Origin: a virus
Lineage: Duplodnaviria > Caudoviricetes
Virus record (IMG/VR): IMGVR_UViG_2623620512_000004
Span: 1 to 64,000 of that record
Strand: one strand, 5' to 3'
Length of the DNA stretch: 64,000 nt
Shown here: one piece after another, positions 4,095-63,250 of the stretch
How positions within the stretch are numbered: the first letter of the stretch is position 1
How the letters are laid out: every line of letters starts with the position of its first letter
Program-made: the position numbers and the translations under genes
Notes under the pieces: generated by a model
The model's database searches: none
What the model was told of the DNA's origin: nothing
What the model saw: only the letters and a program-made list of their open reading frames with translations

Positions 4095-7000
4095 TTATAC
4101 TGTTGTTGTTGATAATGTCGGTAATACGTAGTAAGTTCCATTGATGGTGATACCTGTGTAACCAAGAAGGAACCAAGCTCCTCCAATGAATATCTTGATG
4201 CCGTTAGGAGAAATATCAAAACCATACTGATTGTTACTCTTGCATCTGGCATGGATATGGCTATTTTCATTCATCACAACAAAATTATCCATATTGTTCG
4301 TTCCGAAAGAAACGCCATTGCCAAACAATCTGTTCAGATAGATATTGCTTGTGTATTCATAACGACTACCTGTTATCTCTACTATAAATCTTGTATCGTC
4401 ATCTGAACCCATAATCATCTGGGCTTGTCCTGCGATAACGAGTTTGTTATATCCTGCAGGCGCATCAAACGTCAGATTATGAAAGTCATCAGAGAAACCA
4501 CCTGTTCCCCACCAACCTTCTTCTACATATCCTTGGCTTCCACCAAACCATAGCATAGTGTCAATCTGGTATGAGCGAATAAGCTTTCTTGAAACGAGAT
4601 TCTGGCATGATGCGTCTGAGTATGTATATAGATAAAATGCAATATCTCCAACACTGAAACATTCTGGATAGTACTGTCCAGGATTCGTAAGTGCTCCACC
4701 ACTCCAATACACGTCACCCTTGTATGCGAGGTGATAATATCCAGAAGCCTTAATTCGTCCTGGGCTTGTCAGATGGATGGCATCAGAAACAAAAACCTCC
4801 CAATCAACATAGTTATCCCATTGAACGATTTCTGATGCTCCTGCATGACAAGTGAACGATATGGATTTACTGTCTGAGCCAGATGTTTCACTGAAAAGAT
4901 TATCGATAGAGGATTCAATATTACCATCAAGAACAACACATGGAGAGCCTGTTTCATCATAAACGATGATTTTCTTGGTGGACGGATCCAACTCTATACG
5001 CTTTCCGTTCTGAATACCAAGCATCTGCATACCATTAGGCATTACTTCCCATCTATATCCGTCTGTATGAAGCAATCTTATAAGTCCTCCTACACCATCG
5101 AGTAATAAAGAACCATTCTTGCTCAACAACTGTGAAGCACTGGCCATGAATCCACCGATGTTCGCATTGGCACCAAAGATGGTGTCAGTAATGAGCGTCT
5201 TGATGCGGTTGGCCACCTCCCAATTGCTATCACCTCCTACGAGGGTTGGCGGTGTTCCTGCAGGGATAATCATACCCTTCTTCTTAACACCATAGCGATA
5301 CCAAGTGCCATCAAACTCATAGTCAATAAAGTCTCTGAAATCATCGTTCCATACGAAACTCTCTGTATCGACATATACGCCACGCTCTCTGGGATAGCCT
5401 ACGGTATCTGATGCCAGTTCCGAAATATCAGAATCATTCGTGCAGTAGTCTGTAGCAACAGTTCCCTGCTCAATCTTAGGCATACATACATAGGTCTTAT
5501 TAGAGAACATCCATAGACGCATCAAGAACGCTTGGTCTCTTGCAGGTATGTTGCTCCTTGTCTTAAACGTCATGGTATGCTTCGTCCAGACCTCAGTAAG
5601 TTGCCAGTCAACATGGTTGTCTGTTGAGTTGCCACCATTTATGACAACACCATCAACAATCTTTCCTGCGTTGAAGTCAATACAGGTGTAGTCTGTCTGG
5701 GATTCACCGCTGTTCGTATGCGGATAGAGATATGTCATGAACTTCATACCACGATTGATACGATACCAGTTCACGGTACACGTCTTTCCTTCGGCAGGTG
5801 TAACGCCTCCGCTCTTATAGACATAGGCAGTGATGAAATACTTACCTTCGGCAGGTAAAGTGAAGTTCAATGTGGCAGATGTGGCATAAGTAGAGGTAAT
5901 GGCCACTGACGTCGACCAACTCCAGTCATCATTATAGACGAATACCCTCAGTTCCTCTCCTGCGCTTCTTGCTGTGGACGAACAGTAGCCGTTCACTACC
6001 AGTTGATTCTCTATATTAGGAGCGAAATAGCAAATCTGAGTAGCGAAGCCGTAGTATATCGAAGTCTCATTCTTGTTTATCTGGATATATGGGTCTGCCT
6101 TGGCCCAGAACGACAGCGTGTACCATGTATTCGCTTGAAGTCTCTTCTCGCCATTTACCTCATACATCTTCTGCTGAAGCATTTCCTTCAACACGTCATC
6201 AATGGCAGGCTCACAGACATAACCATTTCTACCTCCTGTACCTTCTGTGGTTGCTCCGTTCTTGGTAATCCACTTATCCATTCTGGATGCGAGGAAATTA
6301 GTCTGGAGCAACTGATTCGCCTTTTGCTCTGTCGTAAAGGCCTCATCATTACCAGAGACCTTATAAGGAGTGCTCCATACTGAGACAGTGCCATCGGTAT
6401 TGAACGTAACGGCATCGGATTTCCAGAGGAACATACTGCCACAAATGAACTTAACGTAACTTGATGAGCCGCTGTTTCCTCGAACGTAAGCCACGCAAAT
6501 GAAGTGTGCGCCTGCAGTTGGGATGGTCACTGATAGGTCACCTGTATCTTGGCTCGTTCCATTGACCTTTCTGATATAATTCGCTACAGGGGCAACAGAA
6601 TCAACCTGCCCGATATATACATTGTCGTAACTGCCGACAGAACACCTCAAACGGAAATAGAATGTCTGGTTGGCCTCTGTTGTGATGAACGAGAAAGTTT
6701 CTACAGAAGTCTGGTTGTTGGCGATAGGGGGTGCAGCCATAAAGCCATCATCGGCCAATGACCAGTCACCCTGTGGCTGTACCTTAAGAGAGACCTCCGA
6801 TGGCTCTGTACTCCATCCAGAAGGGCTCGACCCTGTTGGTTTTGACGGTTTCAAGAACGAGTTCTTGTAGATGCTCTTCGCATCAGCACCCTTCGTTCCT
6901 GTGCCATTGCTGACATGGCCGATGGGTACTGTCTCTGAATCCAGAATGAGGTTTCCAGAGTTCAGCAACTCATAGCGGTAAGCGGTGTACATCGAGGCAT

Positions 7001-9170
7001 AGACGCTCTTTGTTACACCACTATTGTAGTAGCCTGCTGCCGTGCCGTCCGTAATCTCTGTAGGCCCTGCGTCAATACCATTGGTTATCCAGTAGTATCT
7101 CAGTTTCAGTCCATAGGTGCTGAGGCTCTGAACGAGTGTTCTCGCTCCGTTCTGGGCTGTTCGATAGACCTTGATGTTCACGTCCTGCTGTGCGCTCGAC
7201 CCTCCGCTTTCGTTATATGTCAATGCGGATGGAGTGCAGACAAGTTCAAACTTATCCACACCTCTCAGCTTCTTCAGAGTGAGGCGTTTCGTGTACGGTT
7301 GGCCACCATAGGTTCCTACCACGTCAACATATCCAGATGAGGCGTCTGCGCTCATACCTGTCACGGTGACAGTGTTTCCAGAGATAGATACCTGCGAACT
7401 GGCCATGCCGGAATACGAACCCAAAGCCCATGAGGTGTCAGAGGTCTTATCCTCCGCACCGACCAACAGCTTCGCATTGGAAACGACATTGCCAGAGACA
7501 AGGTTTCCTGCTCCGTCATAGAGCATGGAATCATTTTCGTTATCCAGATCTACGACAACGGCACCTTCGCCAGGACCACCGTTCTCGACCCTACCAACGA
7601 TGACCGTCTCAGTGTCTAAGACAGTCTGGTTGGTGTCATCAATACCGAGAATGAATCTGAAATAGTCGTAACTGGCAGGGTCAATACTTAACGATACATA
7701 GTCCTTGCCACTGTCAAAGGCGGTCTTTTTGGCTGAGTATGACGTAGTATTCTCTCTCTGGTACTTGACATACAGGTTGAAGTCAGACATATCAGTGACC
7801 TTGGTACGGACACCGTTCTGTCCTGTGCGCCAGATGTACACTCTGATGGTGGTAGTACTGGCCACGCCATCAGTCTCGTTATACGACACGCTGTTAGGCG
7901 AAAGTTCCAGTTCATACTTATCCTCTCCCTGTAGTCTCTTGATGGTCATGCGTGTGGTGTACGGCTCGTTATTATACGTACACTGTACGATAACATAGCC
8001 ACTGTCGGACGTGATGCCTGTGACGGTCAAGACGCTGCCAGAGATAGAGGCCGTTACTGATGCGCTCTTTTCCTGTATGCTGAAAGTGGGAGGGTTCTGC
8101 ACCCTCTGGCCGTTGCTGTACAGTCTGATGTTCGATACGGCATTGCCGCTGAGAAGTGTTCCATTGCCATCGTACAGCATGGAATCGTTCTCGTTGTCAA
8201 GGTCGAGGTATGTTGCTCCTATGCCATCGGCACCCTTGACGGCACTGACATGATAGAACACGTCTGGAGAGCCGTTGTTATAGTTCACGGTGGTCCTGTT
8301 CCACTGGTAACGCTTGGCGTTGGTGGGGGCTACTGCGTGTTGCTCATCCTGCCAGTCGCTTGACGCTATATCGGTAGGATAGGCCTGCGAGTTACTGTTA
8401 GGACTGCCATACGCACTGATGGCATAGGCCTCAACGATACTGGCAATACCCTTGGCGAAGTTACCTATACAGATAGGACGTGTGACATACTTGTTGCCTC
8501 GGCTGTCGTAACTTATCTCGAAGTTCCAGATATACGGTGCGGAGTTGTCCGCTGATGGTCTGTCCGTGCTCCATGAGCCGCTGACAGAACAGGTCTCTCC
8601 GTTGGCATAGGTGGCCACACCGTCCACAAACGACTTCGTGTTAGGATAGCCGCTTGGAGGTGTGGTGTCGCTGTTTGACGTGGCCCAGTACTCTTGACAG
8701 CCTGCATAGTACGCACCGACACCTATCTGAGAGACAGAATAGGAATCGGTAGTGTCACCATCGGAATAGACTACATGGGTCTTTGTGTACAGCCAGTAGC
8801 CGTCCGTCAATGAAGATGGGAACGCACCCCAGTTGGTGATGGTCGCAGGGTCAACAGGGCTTGCCTGCTGACTGTACGTTACTACGGAACTCTGAATACC
8901 TCTTCCGTCAATACCCATTCTCGATACGGAATAGGCATCGGTATAACTGCCATCGGAATATGCAACGTGTACCCACGTCCAGAGGTAACTACCATCTGCT
9001 ACAGTGGGAACAGTCTGCTTCCAGTCACTTGACGAATCGGCAGGATGAGTAGTGCCAGACGTACTGGCAGCATACTTCGTGAATGAGTTCATCCTGTCAA
9101 CGGTAACGCCAGTGCCAGGCTGTCCGTCCTGTGCCTGCCATCTGACAGGGAACGCTCCTTTTATCTTCAT
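4095..9170 (-). CDS. Large tail fibre / host-specificity protein
   Basis: 1691 aa, S/T/G-rich beta protein; YLWT..YSDG repeats, duplicated DLDNENDSMLYDG modules, CBM-like YTLSFWAKA...PKIEQG. Confidence 0.75.
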   Translation of the reverse strand: MKIKGAFPVRWQAQDGQPGTGVTVDRMNSFTKYAASTSGTTHPADSSSDWKQTVPTVADGSYLWTWVHVAYSDGSYTDAYSVSRMGIDGRGIQSSVVTYSQQASPVDPATITNWGAFPSSLTDGYWLYTKTHVVYSDGDTTDSYSVSQIGVGAYYAGCQEYWATSNSDTTPPSGYPNTKSFVDGVATYANGETCSVSGSWSTDRPSADNSAPYIWNFEISYDSRGNKYVTRPICIGNFAKGIASIVEAYAISAYGSPNSNSQAYPTDIASSDWQDEQHAVAPTNAKRYQWNRTTVNYNNGSPDVFYHVSAVKGADGIGATYLDLDNENDSMLYDGNGTLLSGNAVSNIRLYSNGQRVQNPPTFSIQEKSASVTASISGSVLTVTGITSDSGYVIVQCTYNNEPYTTRMTIKRLQGEDKYELELSPNSVSYNETDGVASTTTIRVYIWRTGQNGVRTKVTDMSDFNLYVKYQRENTTSYSAKKTAFDSGKDYVSLSIDPASYDYFRFILGIDDTNQTVLDTETVIVGRVENGGPGEGAVVVDLDNENDSMLYDGAGNLVSGNVVSNAKLLVGAEDKTSDTSWALGSYSGMASSQVSISGNTVTVTGMSADASSGYVDVVGTYGGQPYTKRLTLKKLRGVDKFELVCTPSALTYNESGGSSAQQDVNIKVYRTAQNGARTLVQSLSTYGLKLRYYWITNGIDAGPTEITDGTAAGYYNSGVTKSVYASMYTAYRYELLNSGNLILDSETVPIGHVSNGTGTKGADAKSIYKNSFLKPSKPTGSSPSGWSTEPSEVSLKVQPQGDWSLADDGFMAAPPIANNQTSVETFSFITTEANQTFYFRLRCSVGSYDNVYIGQVDSVAPVANYIRKVNGTSQDTGDLSVTIPTAGAHFICVAYVRGNSGSSSYVKFICGSMFLWKSDAVTFNTDGTVSVWSTPYKVSGNDEAFTTEQKANQLLQTNFLASRMDKWITKNGATTEGTGGRNGYVCEPAIDDVLKEMLQQKMYEVNGEKRLQANTWYTLSFWAKADPYIQINKNETSIYYGFATQICYFAPNIENQLVVNGYCSSTARSAGEELRVFVYNDDWSWSTSVAITSTYATSATLNFTLPAEGKYFITAYVYKSGGVTPAEGKTCTVNWYRINRGMKFMTYLYPHTNSGESQTDYTCIDFNAGKIVDGVVINGGNSTDNHVDWQLTEVWTKHTMTFKTRSNIPARDQAFLMRLWMFSNKTYVCMPKIEQGTVATDYCTNDSDISELASDTVGYPRERGVYVDTESFVWNDDFRDFIDYEFDGTWYRYGVKKKGMIIPAGTPPTLVGGDSNWEVANRIKTLITDTIFGANANIGGFMASASQLLSKNGSLLLDGVGGLIRLLHTDGYRWEVMPNGMQMLGIQNGKRIELDPSTKKIIVYDETGSPCVVLDGNIESSIDNLFSETSGSDSKSISFTCHAGASEIVQWDNYVDWEVFVSDAIHLTSPGRIKASGYYHLAYKGDVYWSGGALTNPGQYYPECFSVGDIAFYLYTYSDASCQNLVSRKLIRSYQIDTMLWFGGSQGYVEEGWWGTGGFSDDFHNLTFDAPAGYNKLVIAGQAQMIMGSDDDTRFIVEITGSRYEYTSNIYLNRLFGNGVSFGTNNMDNFVVMNENSHIHARCKSNNQYGFDISPNGIKIFIGGAWFLLGYTGITINGTYYVLPTLSTTTV

Positions 9171-9182
9171 AGACTAAACGGT

Positions 9183-9581
9183 TTAATAGTGTGTCATTAC
9201 TTCGTGAGCGGCCTGTGCGCACATATTTCTGAATGCACAGAACTCACCGAACTTCTTGATAACCTCGTTGTCGAGGGCTTCCTTGAACTTGGCCCAACTG
9301 CTTGCTCCTGCAGCAGCCTCAACGATGCTGTCAACGGCATTCATCAGCAGTCCGAACTCATCCTTCTGTGCGAAGCCTGCCTCAATCAGCTGCGACTTGA
9401 TGTGGCCGTAGTCGATTTGGTGGTCAATCTCCACAGGGATGAAGGAATAACCTTGAACCTCATTGCCCTGCTCATCGGTCTGGGCTTCTTGTTTGATGTC
9501 AAGGCTAACGATACGGTTGGCCTTGTCATAGACTGGAGGGCAAATCTCACTCCAACGTCTCTGCAAATTTCCTGTAATCAT
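9183..9581 (-). CDS. Hypothetical tail-module protein
   Basis: 132-aa ORF tightly packed between RT and tail fibre. Confidence 0.55.
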   Translation of the reverse strand: MITGNLQRRWSEICPPVYDKANRIVSLDIKQEAQTDEQGNEVQGYSFIPVEIDHQIDYGHIKSQLIEAGFAQKDEFGLLMNAVDSIVEAAAGASSWAKFKEALDNEVIKKFGEFCAFRNMCAQAAHEVMTHY

Positions 9582-9593
9582 ATCAATCAGTTT

Positions 9594-11027
9594 TTAGTGA
9601 AACAATACTTCCTGTTTGGTGTCCTCAAAGACAATCTTATCGCCATATTCAATGACCTTGCGGCCATCGACCTCGAGAATTTCCACTTGGTCAAGGTCAA
9701 CAACGTAATGCTTGTTACCGTCATCCTTGAAGGCTACCATGAGCCTTGTGACATTGTTACGAAGCATATCATCGAAGAAGTTCTTGACCTCCACGGAGTT
9801 TACTATCAGCTTATACCAGTTATCCATGAAGAGCACCCTAAGAGCATAACGGCCTTCACCATGAGAGGTCTTGATGCCTCTGAGGCAGCGGTCACACTCA
9901 ACGGCCTTGCCGAACTTCGTAAGCATTTCCATGCCTATCTTCGGTTCGTCAATGAACGGCACTCCGTTGGAATCCTTGCGCTCTGTGCGCTTGATGCCAG
10001 TGTTCTTGTATCTTACTCCCATATACTTTTTCGGTAGTTCCCTGCCTGTTTTCATGCACCAGAGACGCTTGCAGTGGGTGTTTCCCCATTTCAGCATACC
10101 CCAAGCAGCGTCATCCAGTTCCCTCAGACGCTTCTTGTTTGTAACTTTGCTACGATGTCTCAGCCAACGCTTCTTGTCTGACTTGCGCCACCACATATCG
10201 TTCTTCACACCATAGTACACGAAGCCCAGCATATCCATACCTTCGCTGATACGGTGGATTTTAGGCTCATGGGTGTTGAAGCCCAGATCGTGGAGGTACT
10301 TTATTGCCCTCTTCATCTTGCGCTTGACCTCGCCCTTGGTGGCTCCAGTGAACATGAAGTCATCAAGGTAACGCTTGTAGTCTGCGCACTTGTTCTCTTC
10401 TGTCATGAAGTGGTCGAAATCCTTCAGCGTGAGGTTGCCGATGCTCTGGCTTGGACGTATGCCGAGTGGAATACCCTTGCCCTCTGGAGCGAACCGCTCA
10501 AACGGCTCCATGAAAGTGTCAACAAACTTCTTATCCTTAAACAGGCGTTCCAAATCCTCTCTGATAAGGCTGTGAGGGATATTGTCGTAATACTTGCAGA
10601 CGTCACCCTGTCCGTACCACCGTTCTGTCCTGCGGTACTTACTCAGTGACTTCTTCATTTCAGTAGCGCACAATATCTGGCCATATCCTTTACGACTTGC
10701 GTATGTATGACGTATGAGGCTCCTGTCTATTCTCCTGTTTCCGGCCATGGTAATCAACTGGTGCTGAATGTGGGAGGGATGGAAGTGCAACTTCGCTATG
10801 TCCCTAAGTTTGTCCTGTCCGCTGACACGCTGCTCGTGCTGATATTCATCAGTGCGCATGGTGCCGTTCAAGACAAACTGCTGAATCTCGATGAGGTTGC
10901 GCCAACGGTTCCCGATATGTCTGATGACACCGGGGTTCCGCATCTTCCTGTTCGTGGATATGCGCTCTGCCTCAACGATGTTTTCCCACACCGCCATCTG
11001 TTCATATATATGGCCTTCTCTCTTCAT
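9594..11027 (-). CDS. DGR reverse transcriptase with ~140-aa C-terminal extension
   Basis: GDVCKYYDNI, GIPLGIRPSQ, YLDD (10359-10370), DMLGF motifs; adjacent TR/VR pair. Confidence 0.95.
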   Translation of the reverse strand: MKREGHIYEQMAVWENIVEAERISTNRKMRNPGVIRHIGNRWRNLIEIQQFVLNGTMRTDEYQHEQRVSGQDKLRDIAKLHFHPSHIQHQLITMAGNRRIDRSLIRHTYASRKGYGQILCATEMKKSLSKYRRTERWYGQGDVCKYYDNIPHSLIREDLERLFKDKKFVDTFMEPFERFAPEGKGIPLGIRPSQSIGNLTLKDFDHFMTEENKCADYKRYLDDFMFTGATKGEVKRKMKRAIKYLHDLGFNTHEPKIHRISEGMDMLGFVYYGVKNDMWWRKSDKKRWLRHRSKVTNKKRLRELDDAAWGMLKWGNTHCKRLWCMKTGRELPKKYMGVRYKNTGIKRTERKDSNGVPFIDEPKIGMEMLTKFGKAVECDRCLRGIKTSHGEGRYALRVLFMDNWYKLIVNSVEVKNFFDDMLRNNVTRLMVAFKDDGNKHYVVDLDQVEILEVDGRKVIEYGDKIVFEDTKQEVLFH

Positions 11028-11245
11028 TCTGTTCGCTTGCTATCGTTTCTATGTGAAGCGTTCAAATCCATTACTGGCTTACTAACGTCACGGGCGGGAC
11101 GGCTGACCGTACACCGCGCAAGGTGAATGTTGTTCCGACCCAACACGTGCTATACATACGCACACGCTGCCGAGGCTCCAGGTACTCGGGTGTTTTCCCA
11201 TGACGCAGTACTGACACCCTTATTGTTTTCTTGACTAACGTAGTT

Positions 11246-11353
11246 AGGCGAGCCGAGATGTTCGAGTTCGAGTTCGACCAAGCGTTGTTCGAGTTCGCAT
11301 AAGCGAGACCGCAATTCGCACCGTTGTTCGAGTTACCGCCAATGAGCCACAGC
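11246..11353 (-). repeat. DGR template repeat (TR)
   Basis: AAC-rich 108-bp repeat; aligns ungapped to 11533-11640 and 55735-55842. Confidence 0.95.
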
Positions 11354-11442
11354 TTCACTACCTTTATGCCTACCATCGGAGTTATGGTTTTTTCTGTTGT
11401 TGACTTACAGGGATTGTTTAACTTTCTGTTAGTGGAGTGATG

Positions 11443-11462
11443 GCAGGGGGGAAACCCCCTGC
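11443..11462. promoter_or_regulatory. DGR target-recognition hairpin/cruciform candidate
   Basis: GCAGGGGG-GAAA-CCCCCTGC perfect 8-bp GC stem with 4-nt loop just past the target stop. Confidence 0.7.
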
Positions 11463-11471
11463 ACCCCCTCC

Positions 11472-12806
11472 TTACGAATTGAGTTCAATTAGTCTCTGGA
11501 TAGACACCTTCTGCACGTTGCCATAGTATGCAAGGCGAGCCGAGAGGCGCGAGGCCGAGGCCGACCAAGCGTTGCTCGAGAGCGCATAAGCGAGACCGCA
11601 AGCCGCACCGTAGCTCGAGTCACCGCCAACGAGCCACAGCTGACCATTAGCATCATACCAGAAGTTATCGCCATAGGAGATACCAGAGATAGATTGCTTC
11701 GGAATCATATAGACACCTTGGCCTTCCTCTGAGGCGATAATGTTCATGGCCCATACGGCACTTGTAGGACGTGTCAGCTTAACATGGTCGATGTTAGCGA
11801 AGGTGTCCGCTGTAGGAGTGCCAGAAGGCATAGTGTTACCTCTCCAGAAGTAAACATCAGTACCTACAGAACACAAGCCCTGCAGCATTTCCCATTTCTG
11901 ACCCCAAGGGTTCTCGAAGCCTGCTACGCTGACGCAGTGACAGGTGTTGCTGTTGGCATCCGTTGTCGCTACGTTGCCGTCATAGTCACCAAGGCTGAGA
12001 GTGATACCAGTCTTGATGTTCTTCTGGCCATCGAAGCCACCGCTGTTCTCTGTACCGTCCAGACCGACACCCCAGACAAGGGTATTGTCAGAGCCCTTAC
12101 AGTTCTGGCTATCACGCCAAGCGTACTTAGCCATCATGTGGAACAGGAGGTGGTTACGGAAGTCCAGACCTGCGAGACCGTGGTTCTTCGAGCGTAACTG
12201 TGCCTTATCCCAGAAGCCTTTGACGGTCTGGCTGTCAGCAGTGACAACACCGGGCAACGAGCGAAGTTTGCCGTCCACGATGGAGCACTTGAACTTGCCG
12301 ACCACCAACTGAGGAATCTCATAGCCGCCAGGCAGTGGTACGAGTGACAGCCAGAGACGCTGCACGGTGGTAGCACCGATAGTCTTTGTCTGCACACGGC
12401 CATAGGTCTTAGGAACAATCTTCATGAAGTCGCAGTTGGCGAGAGAGGAAATGACAGTGCCATCGTTGTTCAAGAGAGACATACCCTCTTCCGAAAAGCG
12501 GCCGTCATTGCGGTTCAGCACAGCACAGTTGCCGTTGGCATCCATGATGACAGAGACAGCGGAATCCTCCAATAACTGCCTCATGTGCATATTACCGCCT
12601 ACGTCTACCCTTGTGCTGCCAAGGCTCGAAGCCTTGTTGACATCAATGTAGAACGCAAGGTCATTCAAAACTTCCTCATCGTTGTCGTTGAGGTGTTGAC
12701 GGAACTCTTCGATGGTCATCTGTCCGACTTTACCACCGAAGTTTCCGAAGATACTGTTTCCGTCACTCATGGAGTGAACGAAATCCGCATTGATTAACTT
12801 TTTCAT
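11472..12806 (-). CDS. DGR target 1: tail/receptor-binding protein with C-terminal C-type-lectin-like VR
   Basis: GFENPWGQKWE and GG...G..CGLAY......W......SARL motifs; VR at 3' end; inside tail module. Confidence 0.88.
   Translation of the reverse strand: MKKLINADFVHSMSDGNSIFGNFGGKVGQMTIEEFRQHLNDNDEEVLNDLAFYIDVNKASSLGSTRVDVGGNMHMRQLLEDSAVSVIMDANGNCAVLNRNDGRFSEEGMSLLNNDGTVISSLANCDFMKIVPKTYGRVQTKTIGATTVQRLWLSLVPLPGGYEIPQLVVGKFKCSIVDGKLRSLPGVVTADSQTVKGFWDKAQLRSKNHGLAGLDFRNHLLFHMMAKYAWRDSQNCKGSDNTLVWGVGLDGTENSGGFDGQKNIKTGITLSLGDYDGNVATTDANSNTCHCVSVAGFENPWGQKWEMLQGLCSVGTDVYFWRGNTMPSGTPTADTFANIDHVKLTRPTSAVWAMNIIASEEGQGVYMIPKQSISGISYGDNFWYDANGQLWLVGGDSSYGAACGLAYALSSNAWSASASRLSARLAYYGNVQKVSIQRLIELNS
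11533..11640 (-). repeat. DGR variable repeat VR1
   Basis: 16 mismatches to TR by manual count, all at TR adenines of the coding strand. Confidence 0.95.
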
Positions 12807-40294: not shown

Positions 40295-40647
40295 TACTCT
40301 TCCTCCGAATACAGGTTATTCAAGAAGTTCTTCAAGTAGGTGTCATCTATCTCCGAGAGTTTCACAGGGTCAAAGTGAATGTCTCTCTCCACTCCAAGAC
40401 CCCATGAGTTCTTGACAGTCTGGAGTTCTGCAAGGCTGACGTAGCCGTACTCACCTTCACCTGCAGGATTGATGGTGATACCGTAGCCTATCTTGTTTTC
40501 AAGATCCGCCTCCAGAATGTACCACGTCCAGTTGACACCGCACATGAAGAACTTCACAACACAGATTGCATCCTTCTTCTTACCATCTTGGCTGTAGAGG
40601 GGATATTCCTGCAACCGTTTCTCTACTTCTTTCGTAATCAATTTCAT
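40294..40647 (-). CDS. DUF2958-like protein
   Basis: LYSQDG...VKFF...WTWYILE...EYGYVSLAEL...VERDIHF. Confidence 0.75.
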   Translation of the reverse strand: MKLITKEVEKRLQEYPLYSQDGKKKDAICVVKFFMCGVNWTWYILEADLENKIGYGITINPAGEGEYGYVSLAELQTVKNSWGLGVERDIHFDPVKLSEIDDTYLKNFLNNLYSEEE

Positions 40648-40665
40648 TGCTCTTCTGTTTTAGGG

Positions 40666-52609: not shown

Positions 52610-52883
52610 TTTGTTTCAGCTTTTCGGTTATCATATTCAATTTCTCTTGATATGCCTGCAACTGGCCGCTCAGTCGAGCAACAGCCAGTTCAGCCCTTGT
52701 TACATCTTCTTGGCTTCTGGCGAAGAAAGATGTTCCAGATTCAACCAACTTCATGCGCTTCTTCAGTGATGCGATAACTTTCTTGAAGCCCTTGACGTTT
52801 GGCATGGCACCAGAGGCGAAAGCCTTTTCAAGTTCATCCTTGATGCTCTGGTATGAGGATTGCTTCATTTCTTCTGTAGTCAT
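52602..52883 (-). CDS. Hypothetical coiled-coil protein
   Basis: AGAGCA-ATG start. Confidence 0.6.
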   Translation of the reverse strand: MTTEEMKQSSYQSIKDELEKAFASGAMPNVKGFKKVIASLKKRMKLVESGTSFFARSQEDVTRAELAVARLSGQLQAYQEKLNMITEKLKQNE

Positions 52884-52895
52884 TGCTCTTTTCGT

Positions 52896-55387: not shown

Positions 55388-55635
55388 TTCAGCTTACTTA
55401 TTGCATCGTCAAACACACCTCTCAGTCCGTTGCTGTAGCGATGGTTAAAGACGTGCTTTCTGAAATACTCAGATACGTCCTTATCCCAATAGCCGCTGTT
55501 GATAACAACCTTGACCCTTTTCTCCAGTTCTCGAATGACATTGGCATTATGCTTGTTCCTTCTGCTGACGTGTTCGTTCCAAAGTCTCTTCACGTCTTTC
55601 CATGAGCAGGGGATTTTGATTACAACCTCTTTCAT
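55384..55635 (-). CDS. Hypothetical protein
   Basis: Coupled ORF. Confidence 0.5.
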   Translation of the reverse strand: MKEVVIKIPCSWKDVKRLWNEHVSRRNKHNANVIRELEKRVKVVINSGYWDKDVSEYFRKHVFNHRYSNGLRGVFDDAISKLK

Positions 55636-56240
55636 TTCTCTGCCTCCTTACGGTTGAATGGTCCTACATAGTCAGCCCAGATGGAAATGAACTGCTTGCC
55701 GAAGTAAACGGCCAGTTCCTCTGACTTGACAGCAAGGCGAGCCGAGACGCTCGAGTACGAGAACGACCAAGCGTCGTTCGAGTTCGCACAAGCGAGACCG
55801 CCATTCGCACCGTAGTACGAGCTACCGCCACCGAGCCACAGCGCACGGTCTTTCTTCCATTGCTCTGACTTGCCTTTCAGTTCCTCTTCCGTCCAGAGAG
55901 TAAACCAAGGGTACCAACGGTATTCATCAGTAGTAAACTGAGGCTCCCATCCTTCGTTGAGGGCGGCAGCGATAGTCTTTAACTTGATGTAGGCTACCTC
56001 ATCTTTTTCCAAGAAGCATCGACTACCATCAATGGGTGACGAATAACGTAACTTGTAGAAATCTACAGGCTCGAAGCCGAGTACATGACAGGCATCCTCA
56101 TAGGTCTTTACTCTCTCTGTGATGGGTAGCAAGGTGTCAATACCTTTAACCTTAACATCATACTTCTCTGCGAGTGCAATCATTTCTTTTGCGAACTCCT
56201 GTGCCTTTTCCTGTGGCACATCTAACTTTAACTCTTTCAT
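55632..56240 (-). CDS. DGR target 2 (remote, non-tail protein with VR)
   Basis: 202 aa from AGAGCA-ATG start; VR2 encodes LWLGGGSSYYGANGGLACANSNDAWSFSYSSVSARL. Confidence 0.85.
   Translation of the reverse strand: MKELKLDVPQEKAQEFAKEMIALAEKYDVKVKGIDTLLPITERVKTYEDACHVLGFEPVDFYKLRYSSPIDGSRCFLEKDEVAYIKLKTIAAALNEGWEPQFTTDEYRWYPWFTLWTEEELKGKSEQWKKDRALWLGGGSSYYGANGGLACANSNDAWSFSYSSVSARLAVKSEELAVYFGKQFISIWADYVGPFNRKEAEK
55735..55842 (-). repeat. DGR variable repeat VR2
   Basis: Ungapped 108-bp match to TR; 13 mismatches by manual count, 11 at TR adenines. Confidence 0.92.
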
Positions 56241-56292
56241 TGCTCTATATTGGTTTAAACGTGCAGGGCGGTTACTCCTGCGAATCCTATAA

Positions 56293-57534: not shown

Positions 57535-58092
57535 TTAGTACTTCTTGTTTCCATGACGGTATTCCCTCATGGCGTTGTAGTGCATCTTCGCATCAATGTG
57601 CCAGTCCAGATCTATTTCGAGCGATTCAGACCAAGCATACATGAACTGTACGAACAAGGTTATCTCACTCATACCCATGTTGCCACAGGTAATCCATCTT
57701 AGCAGTGAGAAGGCTTTCTCAGTGAAGGTAGTCTTATCGGAAACCTTTCTGATACTCCATCCGTTCCACTCCATGCTATCACCGTACTTCTCATAGGCGA
57801 AGTCCAGTATTCTTGTTACGATGTCGGCAAACTCTTCTTCCAGACTACCTTTGATGAAGTCACCATAGCACACCTTCCAGTATGCGTCCGGCACATCACC
57901 GATTCTAACGAGCCGATGGAAATCCTTCATGTTCGCTCTCTTGCCCTTACGGTCAGCCTCAACAGCTTCGGCTATCTCGGTCATCACCATGCAGAGCCAA
58001 TGGGCATCCGATTTCTTCTCTTCATGCCATCCGTGAGTAGTGGCTATCTCATGGATGCTTCTGGCTAATTCATTCAATCTCTCCTTGTTCAT
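57535..58092 (-). CDS. MazG-like nucleotide pyrophosphohydrolase
   Basis: EIAEAVEADR, EEEFADIV.RILD, KMHYN..R...HG.KY. Confidence 0.75.
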   Translation of the reverse strand: MNKERLNELARSIHEIATTHGWHEEKKSDAHWLCMVMTEIAEAVEADRKGKRANMKDFHRLVRIGDVPDAYWKVCYGDFIKGSLEEEFADIVTRILDFAYEKYGDSMEWNGWSIRKVSDKTTFTEKAFSLLRWITCGNMGMSEITLFVQFMYAWSESLEIDLDWHIDAKMHYNAMREYRHGNKKY

Positions 58093-58246
58093 CGTATTCA
58101 AGTTTAATATCCATTGTGCGGATATGGTTTAACTCATCATGGCAGTTACCGATGTTCAACCTATCCAATTCTTCTTTTGCGTTCTCTACGTGTGTCATAA
58201 TCTCATTGATTAGACGCACAACCTGTTTACTCGCCCTGTACTTCAT
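58070..58246 (-). CDS. Hypothetical protein (58 aa, not in ORF track)
   Basis: MKYRASKQ... ATGA overlap with HNH stop. Confidence 0.45.
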   Translation of the reverse strand: MKYRASKQVVRLINEIMTHVENAKEELDRLNIGNCHDELNHIRTMDIKLEYDEQGEIE

Positions 58247-58533
58247 TTCTTCGATTGTTTTCTTGTCTCAGCCCTGTGCTTCGCATCATACCTGTTATGG
58301 CAGGCTTGGCACAGTGCTCTTAGGTTCTCTGGGTCACAATTCTCTGGTGTGTGGTCAAGATGGGCGATAGTGAGCACCACCTGTACCAACTTACCTGTTT
58401 TCTCATTCCAGAAGTGGGAATGATTCTTCCTGCCACAGAACTCACAGCAGTTGTGAGCACGTTCAAGGATAGCAGCACGTATCTCTTTCCAGTTCTTGGG
58501 GTATCTGGCTCTGTTCTCTGGCTTAATAGGCAT
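58243..58533 (-). CDS. HNH endonuclease-like protein
   Basis: MPIKPEN..RYP.NW, CEFCG, LTIAHLDH.PEN....NLRALCQACH. Confidence 0.8.
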   Translation of the reverse strand: MPIKPENRARYPKNWKEIRAAILERAHNCCEFCGRKNHSHFWNEKTGKLVQVVLTIAHLDHTPENCDPENLRALCQACHNRYDAKHRAETRKQSKK

Positions 58534-58681
58534 AACGCTCCTTCTTTTTCTTCTTGTATTGTCTTTGGAACTTTTTCTTCTTGTTGTTCTTCTCGATGTC
58601 ACATGGCCTAACGCCAGGACAGTTGCATCCTTGGCCATAGGCCTTGCTGTTGAACCAGTATTTGCAGTCTGAACATTTCAT
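58523..58681 (-). CDS. Small Cys/Lys-rich protein (52 aa, not in ORF track)
   Basis: MKCSDCKYW...; its ATG overlaps the TGA at 58678-58680. Confidence 0.45.
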   Translation of the reverse strand: MKCSDCKYWFNSKAYGQGCNCPGVRPCDIEKNNKKKKFQRQYKKKKKERYAY

Positions 58682-59507
58682 AGGTCGAATAGTGATTTTT
58701 CTGTTTCAAAATTATATACCAAAACCTCTAACTTTCTTCTTTTACCCCCCCCCCATTTCTATCGAAATTCGCTACATTCATGTTCATATCGACAGACTTG
58801 TAGTTCCAATGATTTTTCTCAATGTACTTTTCAAGTGTAGCCGTCATGAATTGCGAGAGGATAAACTTTCCCTTTATACTTTCCAATCTATGGAGGAGTT
58901 CCTCCAGATTTTCTTCAGTGAATCCATGATAGTGCTTCTGTTCACTTCCGGGGTACGGAGGGTCGAGATAGAAGAACGTCTCTGGCGTGTCTCTCTGCTC
59001 TATGCACAACAGGGCATCACGGCAACTTATCTGAACGTCTTTCAATCTTTCATACAGAGCATCGGTAAAACTATCTCTCTTATTTCTCATAACTCTGCCG
59101 GAATGTGAGCCTCCAGAACCGTTGCACCATTTCCAACCTCCATCTGGAGAACCAGAGAATGATACGTTTGTAAGCATCCATACAGCCCAAGCCTTATCAA
59201 TATCTTGGCAGTCCGCTCCAAGCCATATCTTCCTTGCCTTCTTCCATTCTGTTTCACTATGAAGGGTATTCTTGATACGTTCCTCCAGAGCATCATAGTT
59301 TGTCTGTACTTGCTTGTAGAACGTGATGAGGTTGTCATTTATATCATTGATGGCTTCCAGATACGATGGACCTTTGGCAAAGAAAACTGCACCGCCACCA
59401 AAGAACGGCTCACAATAAATCCTGTGAGGTGGTATCATAGGCAGTATCGTTTTAATCATCTGCTGTTTTCCACCATAGTATGTGATAGGCGTCTTTACTG
59501 GTCTCAT
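58678..59507 (-). CDS. Dam-like DNA adenine methyltransferase, C-terminus frameshifted at G10 tract
   Basis: YYGGKQ, EPFFGGGAVFF, NDIN, YLDPPY; current frame stops at 58728, shifted frame gives KRRKLEVLVYNF...LFDL. Confidence 0.85.
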
Positions 59508-60334
59508 TTCTTTTCTTGCTTTACGTACTCTTCTGGTGTGCAGCCCATCTTTTCCTTGAACAGGTCTTTGAGCATTTTCAAGTCATCTGGCTTATAGCGT
59601 TGGGTGTTATTGATGAGGGAATACGCCATAGACTTCATGTGGTCCTCTTGGTAACGTTTGTAGCCCTTGGGCTTGGTAGTTGCAGGGGTGGCAACATTTG
59701 AGCCGCTTAGAGGACTTGATTTTACTGGCAGTCCGTTCAGTCTGCAATACTCTTCATAGGTGACGGCCGTTTTCGCATATTCAGCATCAGCCTTTTCCTT
59801 TAACTTTCTGTCGTGCTCTTCATATTCATTGGCACGTTCCCTCAGAAACGTCCTCAACGATGTCGTGATAACGATGGGGTCAACAGAGCCATAGAACCTG
59901 CCATACCTTCCAGACTTGAAGCGGTGCAGGAAAAGCATTATCTCCGTGACCTTCAGAAAGCCAAACTCGGTGCTTATCACACTGGCGCATTGCTGTAGTG
60001 CATGGCCAGATAACTTATCCCTGCAGCCGCAGTATTCTGACAGATCGTGCAGATGAGCCATGAGCCACGCAACAGGGAACTTGCCGTCAAAGTCAGTCTT
60101 TAACTGAATAAGGGTGGGGTACTCTCCGAACATACAGGCATCATCATCCAACTGCTTCTTGAACAGGTAGTCTGCATGATAGGTGTCAAGGACTTCCACG
60201 CCCTTGCTACCATATTTCTGCATCACTCCGTTTCTTAACTGAGACAGTTCAATCGTCAGAGAGGAAAGCGGAGATTGTTCTGGCCGCATCAGCTGTTCGC
60301 TGTTCCGTTGTATTATTTCCGTTACTGATTCCAT
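59504..60334 (-). CDS. Replication-associated protein (putative helicase loader)
   Basis: Follows initiator; EIMLFL.RFKSG.YGRFYG motif; AGAGCA-ATG start. Confidence 0.55.
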   Translation of the reverse strand: MESVTEIIQRNSEQLMRPEQSPLSSLTIELSQLRNGVMQKYGSKGVEVLDTYHADYLFKKQLDDDACMFGEYPTLIQLKTDFDGKFPVAWLMAHLHDLSEYCGCRDKLSGHALQQCASVISTEFGFLKVTEIMLFLHRFKSGRYGRFYGSVDPIVITTSLRTFLRERANEYEEHDRKLKEKADAEYAKTAVTYEEYCRLNGLPVKSSPLSGSNVATPATTKPKGYKRYQEDHMKSMAYSLINNTQRYKPDDLKMLKDLFKEKMGCTPEEYVKQEKK

Positions 60335-61013
60335 TGCTCTTAGTGCTATATGATTTTTCGTTTCTGCTCCAATACCGTATCCTCTTTTCAAGAACCCACG
60401 TCTTTTCCATTTCCCAACGCATCCTGCTACCAGACTTATTCGTCTGGCTCCACCAATCATAGAAATTACGCACCATTTCCTTTCCATATATCTGTACGTA
60501 AGGAATGAGGGAGTTATAGAACGCTGCCATACGCTTCTTGGTGTCAGCTGCCACATCTTCCTTGGTTTTCTTTGGGCGTGTTATATTTGTTTTGTTTGAT
60601 TCTTCGCCAGAAGAATCTATAATATTACCTTCTTTAGATGTGGACGTTTGTTGGTCGTTAGTTGGACTTTGGTTGGACGTTTGCTGGACGCTTTCTGGAT
60701 TTACATCTTGATAACTTTCATAATTACAGATAGTTATAAGCGAAAATCGGTTGGACGCTTGGACTATAATTTCACCTGTTTCCTGTAGTTTCTGGATGCA
60801 GGTGCGGATAACTCTTTCCGATATACCTGTCTCTGCCATAAGCCTGTTCCTTCCAGTGATAAGTTGGCCTCGCTTGATTTCCACGCCCTGCCACCGTCCA
60901 TCCTTTACATTGGCATTGAGAAGCAAATGCAGAAACAGATGAACCATTTCAGATTTGCCGTACCATTCCCAATCTTGGAACCTGCGGTATATCTTTACCC
61001 AACTTTCAGACAT
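60249..61013 (-). CDS. Phage replication initiator protein
   Basis: WVKIYR...WEWY, HLLLNAN, RGQLITGR..L, ITICNYESYQ, FYDWW...MRWE. Confidence 0.75.
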   Translation of the reverse strand: MSESWVKIYRRFQDWEWYGKSEMVHLFLHLLLNANVKDGRWQGVEIKRGQLITGRNRLMAETGISERVIRTCIQKLQETGEIIVQASNRFSLITICNYESYQDVNPESVQQTSNQSPTNDQQTSTSKEGNIIDSSGEESNKTNITRPKKTKEDVAADTKKRMAAFYNSLIPYVQIYGKEMVRNFYDWWSQTNKSGSRMRWEMEKTWVLEKRIRYWSRNEKSYSTKSNGISNGNNTTEQRTADAARTISAFLSDD

Positions 61014-61151
61014 AATCTCACATACTGATAATAAAAACTGCCCCGTCTTTCGTGTTCCTCTCCAAGTGTGGAGGTGGCATAGGAATACTACTCGACAGAG
61101 CATTTATATTTCGTTCCAACTGATGCCACTCAGTTGATTGTGTTACGTTTG

Positions 61152-61185
61152 CAAAGGTAACGAATATTATTTGAATAACAAATAC
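61152..61185 (-). promoter_or_regulatory. Class B promoter/operator
   Basis: GTATTTGTTATTCAAAT-N9-TACCTTTG upstream of replication leader. Confidence 0.7.
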
Positions 61186-61209
61186 TATTAACATCATTTT
61201 TAACGAAGT

Positions 61210-61701
61210 TTACAGATTTACCTTGATGCCTTTCAGTGTGCTCAGACGCTTCACCTCCAGAGTGTACCGCTTAATCATCTGCTCCAGTTCGCTATCCAGA
61301 TAATGCTTCGTGCCATGTGCCTTGACGTTGAGCCATTCGACCTTCTGAGGTCCTATCTTCTTGATAAGGTTCTCCCTGTACTTGATGAGGTGGTCGGCAC
61401 TGATGCGGTTGCAGTAGTGGCACTCCCCATGACAGTTATCCTCATCAAACCTTGTGGCCATGTGGATTCTGGAATGGAAGTGTCCGCAATCGACCTCTTC
61501 AAAGGGCTTGATTCGTCCGCAACTGATACATCTGATATAGCCGTTAGGCATTGCGTCTCTCAGTCGGATATACAGGGCAAAGACCCTATCCAGTTTCGCT
61601 ACCAAATTGGGCTTGCTGCGAGGCTTCTTGGTTTTCTCCGTATTTGCCTCTTTGCTTCCTTTTTTAGCCTTCTTTGGCCAGTGGCGCATATAGTAGGGCA
61701 T
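61210..61701 (-). CDS. ninG: NinG/Rap-like junction endonuclease
   Basis: LDRVFALYIRLRD, CISCG, DCGHF, TRFDEDNCHGEC..CN. Confidence 0.85.
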   Translation of the reverse strand: MPYYMRHWPKKAKKGSKEANTEKTKKPRSKPNLVAKLDRVFALYIRLRDAMPNGYIRCISCGRIKPFEEVDCGHFHSRIHMATRFDEDNCHGECHYCNRISADHLIKYRENLIKKIGPQKVEWLNVKAHGTKHYLDSELEQMIKRYTLEVKRLSTLKGIKVNL

Positions 61702-61703
61702 GG

Positions 61704-62075
61704 CTACACGAATTTAACTTTGTGAACCATTTTTCCGTTCTCACTCTCTACCTTGCCGAAGAACGTTGATGGCGTGGTGTCACACACCTCAAAGATGAAC
61801 TCCAGACCTATTGCCGTTGCAACCAGAAATTCTGTCTGGCATCCGGCACTGTGGTTCCACTTCTTCATCATGTAGATGCAGTCGCATTCCAACAGGGCCT
61901 TGATGTCAACCTTCATGTGCTCTGCTGTGGTGCTCTCTGGCGGCAGTCCGTTGGCCATGGGGTTGAACACTTCGTAACCTAACTTTTCCAGATATTCCTG
62001 TATTCTGGCAAAGTCCGCTTTTCTCTCTTCGTAGTTATGGCCACTGATGGGGCCGCTGATATATACTTTCTTCAT
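61704..62075 (-). CDS. DUF4406 / nucleoside deoxyribosyltransferase-like protein
   Basis: KVYISGPISG, FNP, CDCIYM...W..S.GC..E. Confidence 0.75.
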   Translation of the reverse strand: MKKVYISGPISGHNYEERKADFARIQEYLEKLGYEVFNPMANGLPPESTTAEHMKVDIKALLECDCIYMMKKWNHSAGCQTEFLVATAIGLEFIFEVCDTTPSTFFGKVESENGKMVHKVKFV

Positions 62076-63250
62076 TGGAACATTACATTTGTGAGTTGTT
62101 TTCCGTGTGACATAATGCACCATCTACTGGAGTTAGGTGCTTCCAGATCTATTTTCAAGTCGGCCACATTGCCGAAGCGTCTGTAGGTTCCGCACAAGTC
62201 CACTACCCAACCGTCCTTGCCTTTGAACGGACGGATGGCACGGCCTACCATCTGATAGTAGAGAGCGAGGGATTTTGTCGGACGGCCAAGGATAATCGTA
62301 TCTAACTCTGGGTAGTCGAATCCAGTAGTCAGCGTACCTACGTTGGCCACGACCTTGATACTTCCTGCCTTGAACTCTTCAAGGATTTCCTCTCGGTCTC
62401 TCTTAGGGGTCTCTCCTGTGACGATACCTGCATTGATACCTACAGACTGTAACTTGTTGACAAGGCTCTCTGCTTCCTCGATGTATCTGGTGAATACCAG
62501 GACACCGTTTCTGGGTATGCCACTCTTTGGCTTCAATACTCGGATGGTAGTCTGGGACAGCTTATCATAAAAGCCGCTTCTCTTATACTCTTCCTTCAGC
62601 GACTTGTCATCATAATCTGCACCTGTGGAGTTGGAACGTACCCTGCTCATGTCAACAGCCGTACAGTCATAGTAGTGGAGGTTTGCGAGATAGCCCTTGG
62701 CCAGAAGGTCTGAAATCTGACAGTAGTACAGGACGGATGAGAATATTCTTGGGTTCGTCCTTGTGAGGAACTTCAAGGTGCTGCCACCTCTGAATGAGCA
62801 CAGTCTGTACGGTGTGGCCGTAAGACCTACCACCCTTCGCTCTGTAGCCTCGATGAACTGCTTATACTGTCCTGCCTTGGAGTTGACGTAATGGCACTCA
62901 TCAATCATGACGTTCTTGAAGTGCTCGAAGTCCTCCATGTGATTCATGACGCTTCCGATGGTGGCGAAGGTGATGCGGTTTATATCCTTCCTGCCTACCG
63001 ATGCCGAATAGACTGAGGCATCCCAACAGCCGTAACTCTGCAACTTGGCGAAGTTCTGTTCCAGAATCTCCTTCTGGGGCTGTAGAATCAGAAGCGGACC
63101 ATCTAACTTAGAGGCTATGTCGGCAATAACGAGGCTCTTACCTGCTCCTGTCGGCAGGATAAGCAAGCCGTTACGTGCTCCCTTGGACTGGAAGCATCTT
63201 ACAGCTGCCGTGCTTGCATCCCTCTGATAGTCTCTTAAAACGTATTTCAT
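62072..63250 (-). CDS. SF2 DEAD/DEAH-box helicase
   Basis: LRDYQ, LPTGAGKS, IDECH, GLTATP, TGFD.P, QMVGRAIR. Confidence 0.92.
   Translation of the reverse strand: MKYVLRDYQRDASTAAVRCFQSKGARNGLLILPTGAGKSLVIADIASKLDGPLLILQPQKEILEQNFAKLQSYGCWDASVYSASVGRKDINRITFATIGSVMNHMEDFEHFKNVMIDECHYVNSKAGQYKQFIEATERRVVGLTATPYRLCSFRGGSTLKFLTRTNPRIFSSVLYYCQISDLLAKGYLANLHYYDCTAVDMSRVRSNSTGADYDDKSLKEEYKRSGFYDKLSQTTIRVLKPKSGIPRNGVLVFTRYIEEAESLVNKLQSVGINAGIVTGETPKRDREEILEEFKAGSIKVVANVGTLTTGFDYPELDTIILGRPTKSLALYYQMVGRAIRPFKGKDGWVVDLCGTYRRFGNVADLKIDLEAPNSSRWCIMSHGKQLTNVMFQ

Follow-up and report, generated by a model that had tools for sequence, protein, structure and literature searches.

A probable second, remote target of a single diversity-generating retroelement in a replication-module gene of a ruminant-gut prophage

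Introduction

Does the single diversity-generating retroelement (DGR) of a prophage rewrite only the tail-module gene beside its reverse transcriptase (RT), or also a small gene that lies about 44 kb away? Phage DGRs are mostly regarded as host-receptor switching devices, and a second target among replication and DNA-modification genes suggests that a hypermutated protein is at work inside the cell or otherwise outside the virion. A role beyond receptor switching has already been pointed out for Quimbyviridae and for LoVEphage-type prophages. The locus considered here lies in the window, a stretch of 64,000 nucleotides that makes up positions 1 to 64,000 of the IMG/VR virus record IMGVR_UViG_2623620512_000004 (Duplodnaviria; Caudoviricetes). 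An earlier note, made from these letters alone, had proposed that one template repeat (TR) serves two variable repeats (VRs), one in a tail-module gene and the other in a remote gene. Our analysis upholds this arrangement, and bears out each sequence feature that the note had listed, with VR1 in a gene that matches phrog_5302 and VR2 in a gene 44 kb away. Here, we describe the repeats, their variation between strains, the protein that carries VR2 and the family to which it belongs, and ask what such a protein may do.

Results

The DGR cassette is encoded on the minus strand and consists of the following features.

9594-11027, minus strand: DGR reverse transcriptase, a single intact 477-aa ORF (Pfam RVT_1, E 1.2e-11; phrog_1423, E 5.5e-46)
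11243-11353 (core 11246-11353), minus strand: template repeat (TR), non-coding, 3' end ...CTCGGCTCGCCTAAC (IMH*-like)
11434-11471, minus strand: GC-rich stem-loop, 8-bp GC stem and 4-nt loop, right after the target-1 stop codon
11472-12806, minus strand: target 1, a 444-aa tail-module protein (phrog_5302 'tail protein', E 2.7e-17)
11530-11640 (core 11533-11640), minus strand: VR1, near the 3' end of target 1, with 16/16 mismatches to the TR at adenines

The RT carries the motifs LGIRPSQ (residue 188; LGxxxSQ) and YLDD (residue 220), and the intact RTs of two relatives, G003 and G005, are 72-73% identical to it; the RVT_1 match takes in only residues 112-269 of 477, so that about 200 C-terminal residues lie outside it. 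The TR, whose core holds 23 adenines in 108 nt, is placed 118 nt past the target-1 stop codon and 218 nt ahead of the RT start. The stem-loop past target 1 was found as an inverted repeat with a DNA fold z-score of -2.48, about 75 nt after VR1, and could be a DGR target hairpin or a terminator. An Avd-like gene was not detected: a search of the provirus with PF05635 came up empty, and none of the ORFs next to the RT, including the 132-aa ORF that follows it (region 9183-11027), could be placed in a Pfam or PHROG family. [quoted passage not shown] Downstream of the RT, beyond the 132-aa ORF, a 1691-aa ORF spans 4095-9170 on the minus strand; it could encode a large tail fibre or a host-interaction protein.

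The second, remote set of features is also on the minus strand.

55632-56240, minus strand: target 2 (P0001), a 202-aa protein (ORF translation; phrog_11581)
55732-55842 (core 55735-55842), minus strand: VR2, residues 133-168 of target 2, about 44 kb from the cassette

Read on the coding strand, the VR2 core (55735-55842) aligns without gaps to the TR core (11246-11353) with 13 mismatches in 108 positions, 11 of which fall on TR adenines. The binomial chance that at least 11 of 13 mismatches hit an adenine, given 23 adenines in 108 positions, is 2.1e-6, which confirms the adenine bias that had been noticed by eye; the other two mismatches, at core positions 11 and 40, are the T>G changes that had likewise been flagged as atypical. 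An ungapped scan of both strands of the window with the 108-nt VR2 segment at 60% identity or more returns three places, namely the segment itself, 11246 (95/108) and 11533 (89/108), and the full provirus record of 72,374 nt holds the same three places only, with no fourth copy. The two VRs carry distinct sets of changes: at the 23 adenine sites of the TR, VR1 and VR2 share the same substitution at 3 and differ in their substitution at 4, while 4 sites are changed in VR2 only, 9 in VR1 only and 3 in neither.

The 3' ends of the repeats divide them in a manner that had also been seen before, the VRs sharing an end from which the TR departs. Within the window the 15-mer CTCGGCTCGCCTTGC is confined to VR1 and VR2, where it forms the 3' end (11530 and 55732-55746, respectively), and CTCGGCTCGCCTAAC is confined to the TR (11243); thus both VRs end in ...CGCCTTGC and the TR in ...CGCCTAAC, a TG versus AA distinction that is kept in G003 and G005. 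Judged by this pattern, the VR-specific end is IMH-like and its TR counterpart IMH*-like. The homology of VR2 begins sharply at 55842 and ends in the 15-mer common to VR1. Outside the repeat the two targets appear unrelated, as the earlier note had stated: BLASTP aligns target 2 to target 1 over residues 134-170 only, and hhalign of the target-2 family profile against a five-sequence target-1 alignment covers 41 columns only. Both VRs are read in one frame, in which 13 TR codons contain an adenine (10 are AAY) and changes at adenines cannot create a stop codon; the 13 recodable codons of VR2 allow about 4e13 protein variants.

Three near-identical 108-nt copies in one genome might also have arisen without reverse transcription, by ordinary paralogy or by gene conversion between two genes with lectin-like ends. 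We find this hardly credible. Measured against one of the copies, which is non-coding and sits beside an RT, the mismatches have a direction and are specific to adenines, the homology stops sharply at the VR borders, and the same adenine-specific pattern recurs in 9/9 other phages, each with a TR of its own (see below).

The sequence of VR2 differs from strain to strain. In a close relative, the IMG/VR contig L004 is 98% identical to the window upstream of the gene and nearly identical to it in the 3' half of the gene. The flanks of VR2 differ at 0/77 positions on the 5' side and 3/60 on the 3' side, whereas inside VR2 16/23 TR-adenine sites differ as against 2/85 other sites. Both of these non-adenine differences are the private T>G changes of the window, at which L004 retains the TR base, and the VR of L004 accordingly shows 16 mismatches to the TR of the window, 16/16 at adenines. 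The cluster representative P0005 carries a third VR2 allele between identical flanks, and across eight related sequences 23/23 adenine sites are variable compared with 30/85 non-adenine sites (Fisher p 3e-9). Contigs that match the window at about 97% identity, from 4 metagenome runs (bovine or gut), point the same way: they show at least 6 differences in VR2, and among those listed 5 are at TR-adenine sites, while the sixth is the T>G site 55802, where 4/4 runs have the TR base. This comparison draws on Logan contigs rather than raw reads, the listed part of VR2 is without 55803-55842, and some of the contigs aligned to VR2 are in fact the relatives' own VR1 or TR regions. In run X4 two contigs end inside VR2, which is compatible with VR heterogeneity and proves nothing.

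From these comparisons we conclude that the lineage rewrites VR2. The earlier note had held that VR2 would appear to be a relic if strains lacked adenine-specific polymorphism there; since such differences do exist between strains (16/23 against 2/85 in L004), VR2 is not a relic at the level of the lineage. Whether this particular prophage still rewrites VR2 is less certain. Its copy could have been written by the DGR once and now be an inefficient homing site subject to ordinary drift. The record is an integrated provirus; the private non-adenine changes in VR2 (2/85) occur at about the rate of flank divergence from L004 (3/137), which fits the absence of a recent homing reset, or else rare RT errors; and no hairpin follows VR2, again as noted earlier (no inverted repeat, fold z-score -0.86), whereas a GC stem-loop follows target 1. 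We nevertheless consider decay in this prophage rather improbable, as VR2 has kept an intact IMH-like 15-mer with no difference from the one in VR1, the ORF of the RT is uninterrupted, and close relatives carry different alleles at the adenine sites. Moreover, 2 versus 0 non-adenine changes in 85 positions (VR2 versus VR1) is not a significant difference, and two other phages, G002 and G007, each show one non-adenine change in VRs that are otherwise adenine-specific.

The same relatives differ from the window at the other end of the gene. In L004 and in contigs of X3 and X5, window positions 56007-56223 (minus strand; about residues 6-78) are replaced by an unrelated segment of 631-673 nt. The N-terminal module of target 2 is thus swapped in front of a constant VR-bearing half, with the upstream sequence 98% identical in L004. 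Near-identical relatives of the whole protein were not found: the best match in the phage collection has 39.5% amino acid identity, the best in IMG/VR has 63% over the whole protein, the best in JGI metagenome contigs 63%, and GTDB genomes gave 2 loci, at 63% and 45%.

What kind of protein carries VR2? Target 2 matches phrog_11581, a PHROG of unknown function, over nearly its whole length (E 4.6e-48; residues 23-192 on profile positions 27-191 of 200), and has no match in Pfam. It lacks a hydrophobic segment (maximum Kyte-Doolittle value over 19 residues 0.67) and a signal-like N-terminus, and is by these predictions a small soluble protein with neither signal peptide nor membrane segment. When 1.84 billion cluster representatives were searched with a profile, 3741 matched at E<=1e-3; of these, 2162 also passed E<=1e-10 and 399 passed E<=1e-30. 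The best 150 of the 3741 are mostly 150-260 aa long, and some family members have additional N-terminal domains. Four members (P0042, P0087, P0131 and P0146) are tandem duplications of the core of about 130 aa, with a VR-like segment in each copy.

Neither target 2 nor any of the 150 family members has a Pfam lectin or FGE match. Scattered Pfam matches among the 150, each in one member at E 0.001-0.01, were treated as chance, as was a Tad2-like match in a single member (E 0.0011), which was absent when the 10 longest members were scanned again. Two AlphaFold2 models, built from 30 and 150 sequences, reach pLDDT 73.4 and 81.5 and show a confident, largely helical scaffold in which residues 135-162, that is the VR, are disordered at pLDDT <50. 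With the VR part disordered in this way, a Foldseek search of the PDB with both models gave no match at E<=1e-3; VIA-align of the two models gave best Z values of 3.5 and 3.0. Neither model thus matched a solved structure, C-type lectin folds included. Sequence and profile searches of the PDB with target 2 yielded nothing usable, the ESM Atlas returned clusters from phages or Bacteroidota only, and BFVD returned uncharacterised family members only. A C-type lectin domain is reported for the Quimbyvirus homologue in passages of the paper by Benler et al. (Benler et al. 2021, PMC8008677).

Nearly all window ORFs that could be assigned are on the minus strand, and target 2 lies downstream of the following block.

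57535-63250, minus strand: genes for a pyrophosphatase, an HNH endonuclease, a DNA methyltransferase, an unknown ORF, a DnaD-like loader, NinG/Rap, a nucleoside deoxyribosyltransferase-like protein and a DNA helicase (PHROG matches)

Going downstream on the minus strand, this block runs from the helicase to the pyrophosphatase and is followed by small ORFs, target 2 and more small ORFs; past these come a ParB-like protein, the small and large terminase, the remaining genes, the tail module and the DGR cassette. The genes between the terminase and the tail module are presumably structural. The homologue in LoVEphage sits between methyltransferases, near a Lar-like restriction-alleviation gene, and that in Bacteroides phage Versailles (L002 4863-5444) between NinB and replisome-organizer genes, yet it is annotated 'tail protein'. 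Target 2 itself matches phrog_5302 at residues 135-174 only, and the label in Versailles probably stems from such VR-only similarity.

The earlier note had placed target 2 in an early-type cassette and had pointed to the AGAGCA that precedes its ATG. The replication and DNA-modification neighbours agree with the first part and the motif is indeed present, but it does not mark early genes. The string AGAGCAATG is present at 23 places in the window, where about 1.2 would be expected, and 22 of the 23 are on the minus strand (for instance at 56238-56246, 52881-52889 and 40645-40653). Its sites are found in a block at 31-43 kb, downstream of the terminase genes, as well as in the 50-63 kb replication block. 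AGAGCA-ATG appears to be a general context of start codons in this phage.

This setting also bears on whether target 2 might be an adhesin after all, that is an extracellular or virion-associated protein (a minor tail, decoration or lysis-released protein) that is encoded outside the structural module and, with target 1, broadens the range of receptors recognised. Receptor-binding proteins make up most of the phage DGR targets known so far, the VR peptides of target 2 and of the tail protein are alike in kind, and the Versailles homologue bears a tail label. We consider an adhesin unlikely, since that label is probably due to the VR alone, the gene lies among replication or recombination genes in 3/3 annotated or annotatable genomes (window, LoVEphage, Versailles), target 2 has no signal peptide or membrane segment, and outside the VR it shows no similarity to target 1. 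The main texts of the literature searched yielded no virion proteomics for these phages; the term 'mass spectrometry' occurs 0 times in PMC12694917.

We compared the VR of family members with the TR of their own genome, and in 9/9 other phages tested the member is a DGR target, with 112/114 mismatches at adenines; the survey leaves out about 35 further loci as well as G001 and G004, the 2 of 11 relatives' records in which an RT probe found no RT and which are contig fragments about 47-50% complete.

LoVEphage OY725593: 9/9 mismatches at A
G005: 19/19 mismatches at A
G003: 12/12 mismatches at A
G002: 15/16 mismatches at A
Bacteroides phage Versailles: 14/14 mismatches at A
crAss-like phage cr56_1: 15/15 mismatches at A
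G006: 8/8 mismatches at A
G007: 10/11 mismatches at A
BT-TP2: 10/10 mismatches at A

Variation within a narrow group has the same signature: in seven near-identical human-gut genes, 21/22 TR-adenine sites vary, compared with 7/87 other VR sites and 15/506 sites outside the VR.

Some members of the family deserve separate mention. The one in crAss-like phage cr56_1, gp09 (L054 2480-2887), is a hypothetical protein of 135 aa, and its TR lies near the RT of that phage, the reading frame of which contains 4 TAG codons. G007, an IMG/VR record (L015 / L060), encodes a minimal member of 126 aa directly upstream of the TR and RT, with a further VR copy upstream; in G007 the member is therefore a cassette-adjacent target. 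A member on a metagenome contig (L034 811-1377) has six X residues in its translation, all of them in the VR and none elsewhere in the protein, and these ambiguous bases suggest heterogeneity within the sample at its VR.

Discussion

We consider VR2 to be a genuine second, remote VR of the prophage's single DGR, situated in a replication-module gene, with a probability of roughly 0.88. By analogy with established DGR biology, the RT (9594-11027) would use the RNA of the TR as template for a cDNA in which bases are placed at random opposite adenines, and this cDNA would replace those VRs that have the matching 3' recognition end (...CTCGGCTCGCCTTGC), namely VR1 and VR2. Replacement of VR2 would recode 13 codons of a soluble protein of 202 aa.

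What could such a protein bind? We tentatively propose, as its most likely role, that target 2 acts inside the cell as a variable binder in conflicts of the phage with its host or with other phages. Its cytoplasmic site, and its binding of host or defence proteins, are what we infer from the gene context and from the lack of a signal peptide or membrane segment. The family to which it belongs is a large one; its members are small proteins of Bacteroidota phages, repeatedly targeted by DGRs and encoded in replication or DNA-modification modules, not in the virion module. Its thousands of clusters, and its occurrence in siphovirus-like prophages as well as crAss-like phages, suggest that the family is very large and that DGRs target it in phages with unrelated backbones. 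At a still more speculative level, proteins of the phrog_11581 type might conceivably be very widespread DGR-diversified intracellular binders, acting as a pre-adaptive, 'antibody-like' counter-defence or as a superinfection-exclusion sensor, in which the TR that retargets the tail also rewrites the variable face of the binder and swappable N-terminal modules lead to different outputs; we regard this wider picture as possible but doubtful. A limited literature search found no prior report that this small target forms a very large family with DGR targeting in several backbones, a crAss-like phage among them. Because of its size and the recurrence of DGR targeting across backbones, the family is a good entry point to what non-structural DGR targets bind.

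The prototype of these elements is the DGR of Bordetella phage BPP-1, with the tail-fibre protein Mtd as its one, adjacent and structural target, an Avd protein and a hairpin after the VR. The window shares with it the adenine-specific transfer from TR to VR, the position of the VR at the 3' end of the target, VR and TR 3' elements that differ, and a TR rich in AAY. It departs from BPP-1 in having a second target 44 kb off, no Avd-like gene and no hairpin after VR2. Many DGRs have an Avd protein and some have a hairpin or cruciform just past the VR, but neither is universal. Remote targets are known from cellular DGRs as well: a 2018 survey by Wu and colleagues reportedly described multi-target and remote-target systems in which a single RT and TR serve, in trans, VRs that lie away from the cassette. 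Cellular remote targets are chromosomal and often surface or signalling proteins, whereas the target in the window is a small soluble protein encoded by a phage.

Among gut phages with two VRs and one TR, one report describes second DGR targets termed tentaclins, in which an N-terminal C-lectin domain is followed by immunoglobulin-like domains and which are proposed to bind receptors (Baykov et al. 2023, PMC10743442). Target 2 differs from tentaclins so described, being 202 aa long with its VR near the C-terminus and without an Ig-like domain according to Pfam or the AlphaFold2 models.

Much closer are Quimbyvirus, for which one TR with two VRs and a distal second target is described in passages of Benler et al. 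(Benler et al. 2021, PMC8008677), and LoVEphage-type prophages, for which passages of a later report likewise describe a second, distal DGR target (Nature 2025, PMC12629997). We infer that the two represent the same phage group. In both, as these passages present them and as in the window, one VR is in a tail-module gene beside the RT and the other in a small distant gene; that gene lies among methyltransferase, nuclease and replication genes, and was read by the authors as non-structural and related to conflict. For the homologous Quimbyvirus gene, such a conflict-related role is proposed in the cited passages of Benler et al. (PMC8008677). The LoVEphage homologue (OY725593, 57015-57599) is 39.5% identical to target 2 over 75% of its length. 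The two phages differ in that the annotated RT ORF of LoVEphage is short and followed by small overlapping ORFs, whereas the RT of the window is one ORF of 477 aa, and in that target 2 is on the opposite strand in LoVEphage and on the strand of the RT in the window. The phage of the window occurs in bovine and sheep gut metagenomes, and thereby adds to this group a ruminant-gut member with an intact RT and clear variation between strains at adenine sites.

In conclusion, the window is a divergent addition to an arrangement that has already been published, distinguished by a single-ORF RT, by the location of both targets on one strand and by its origin in the ruminant gut.
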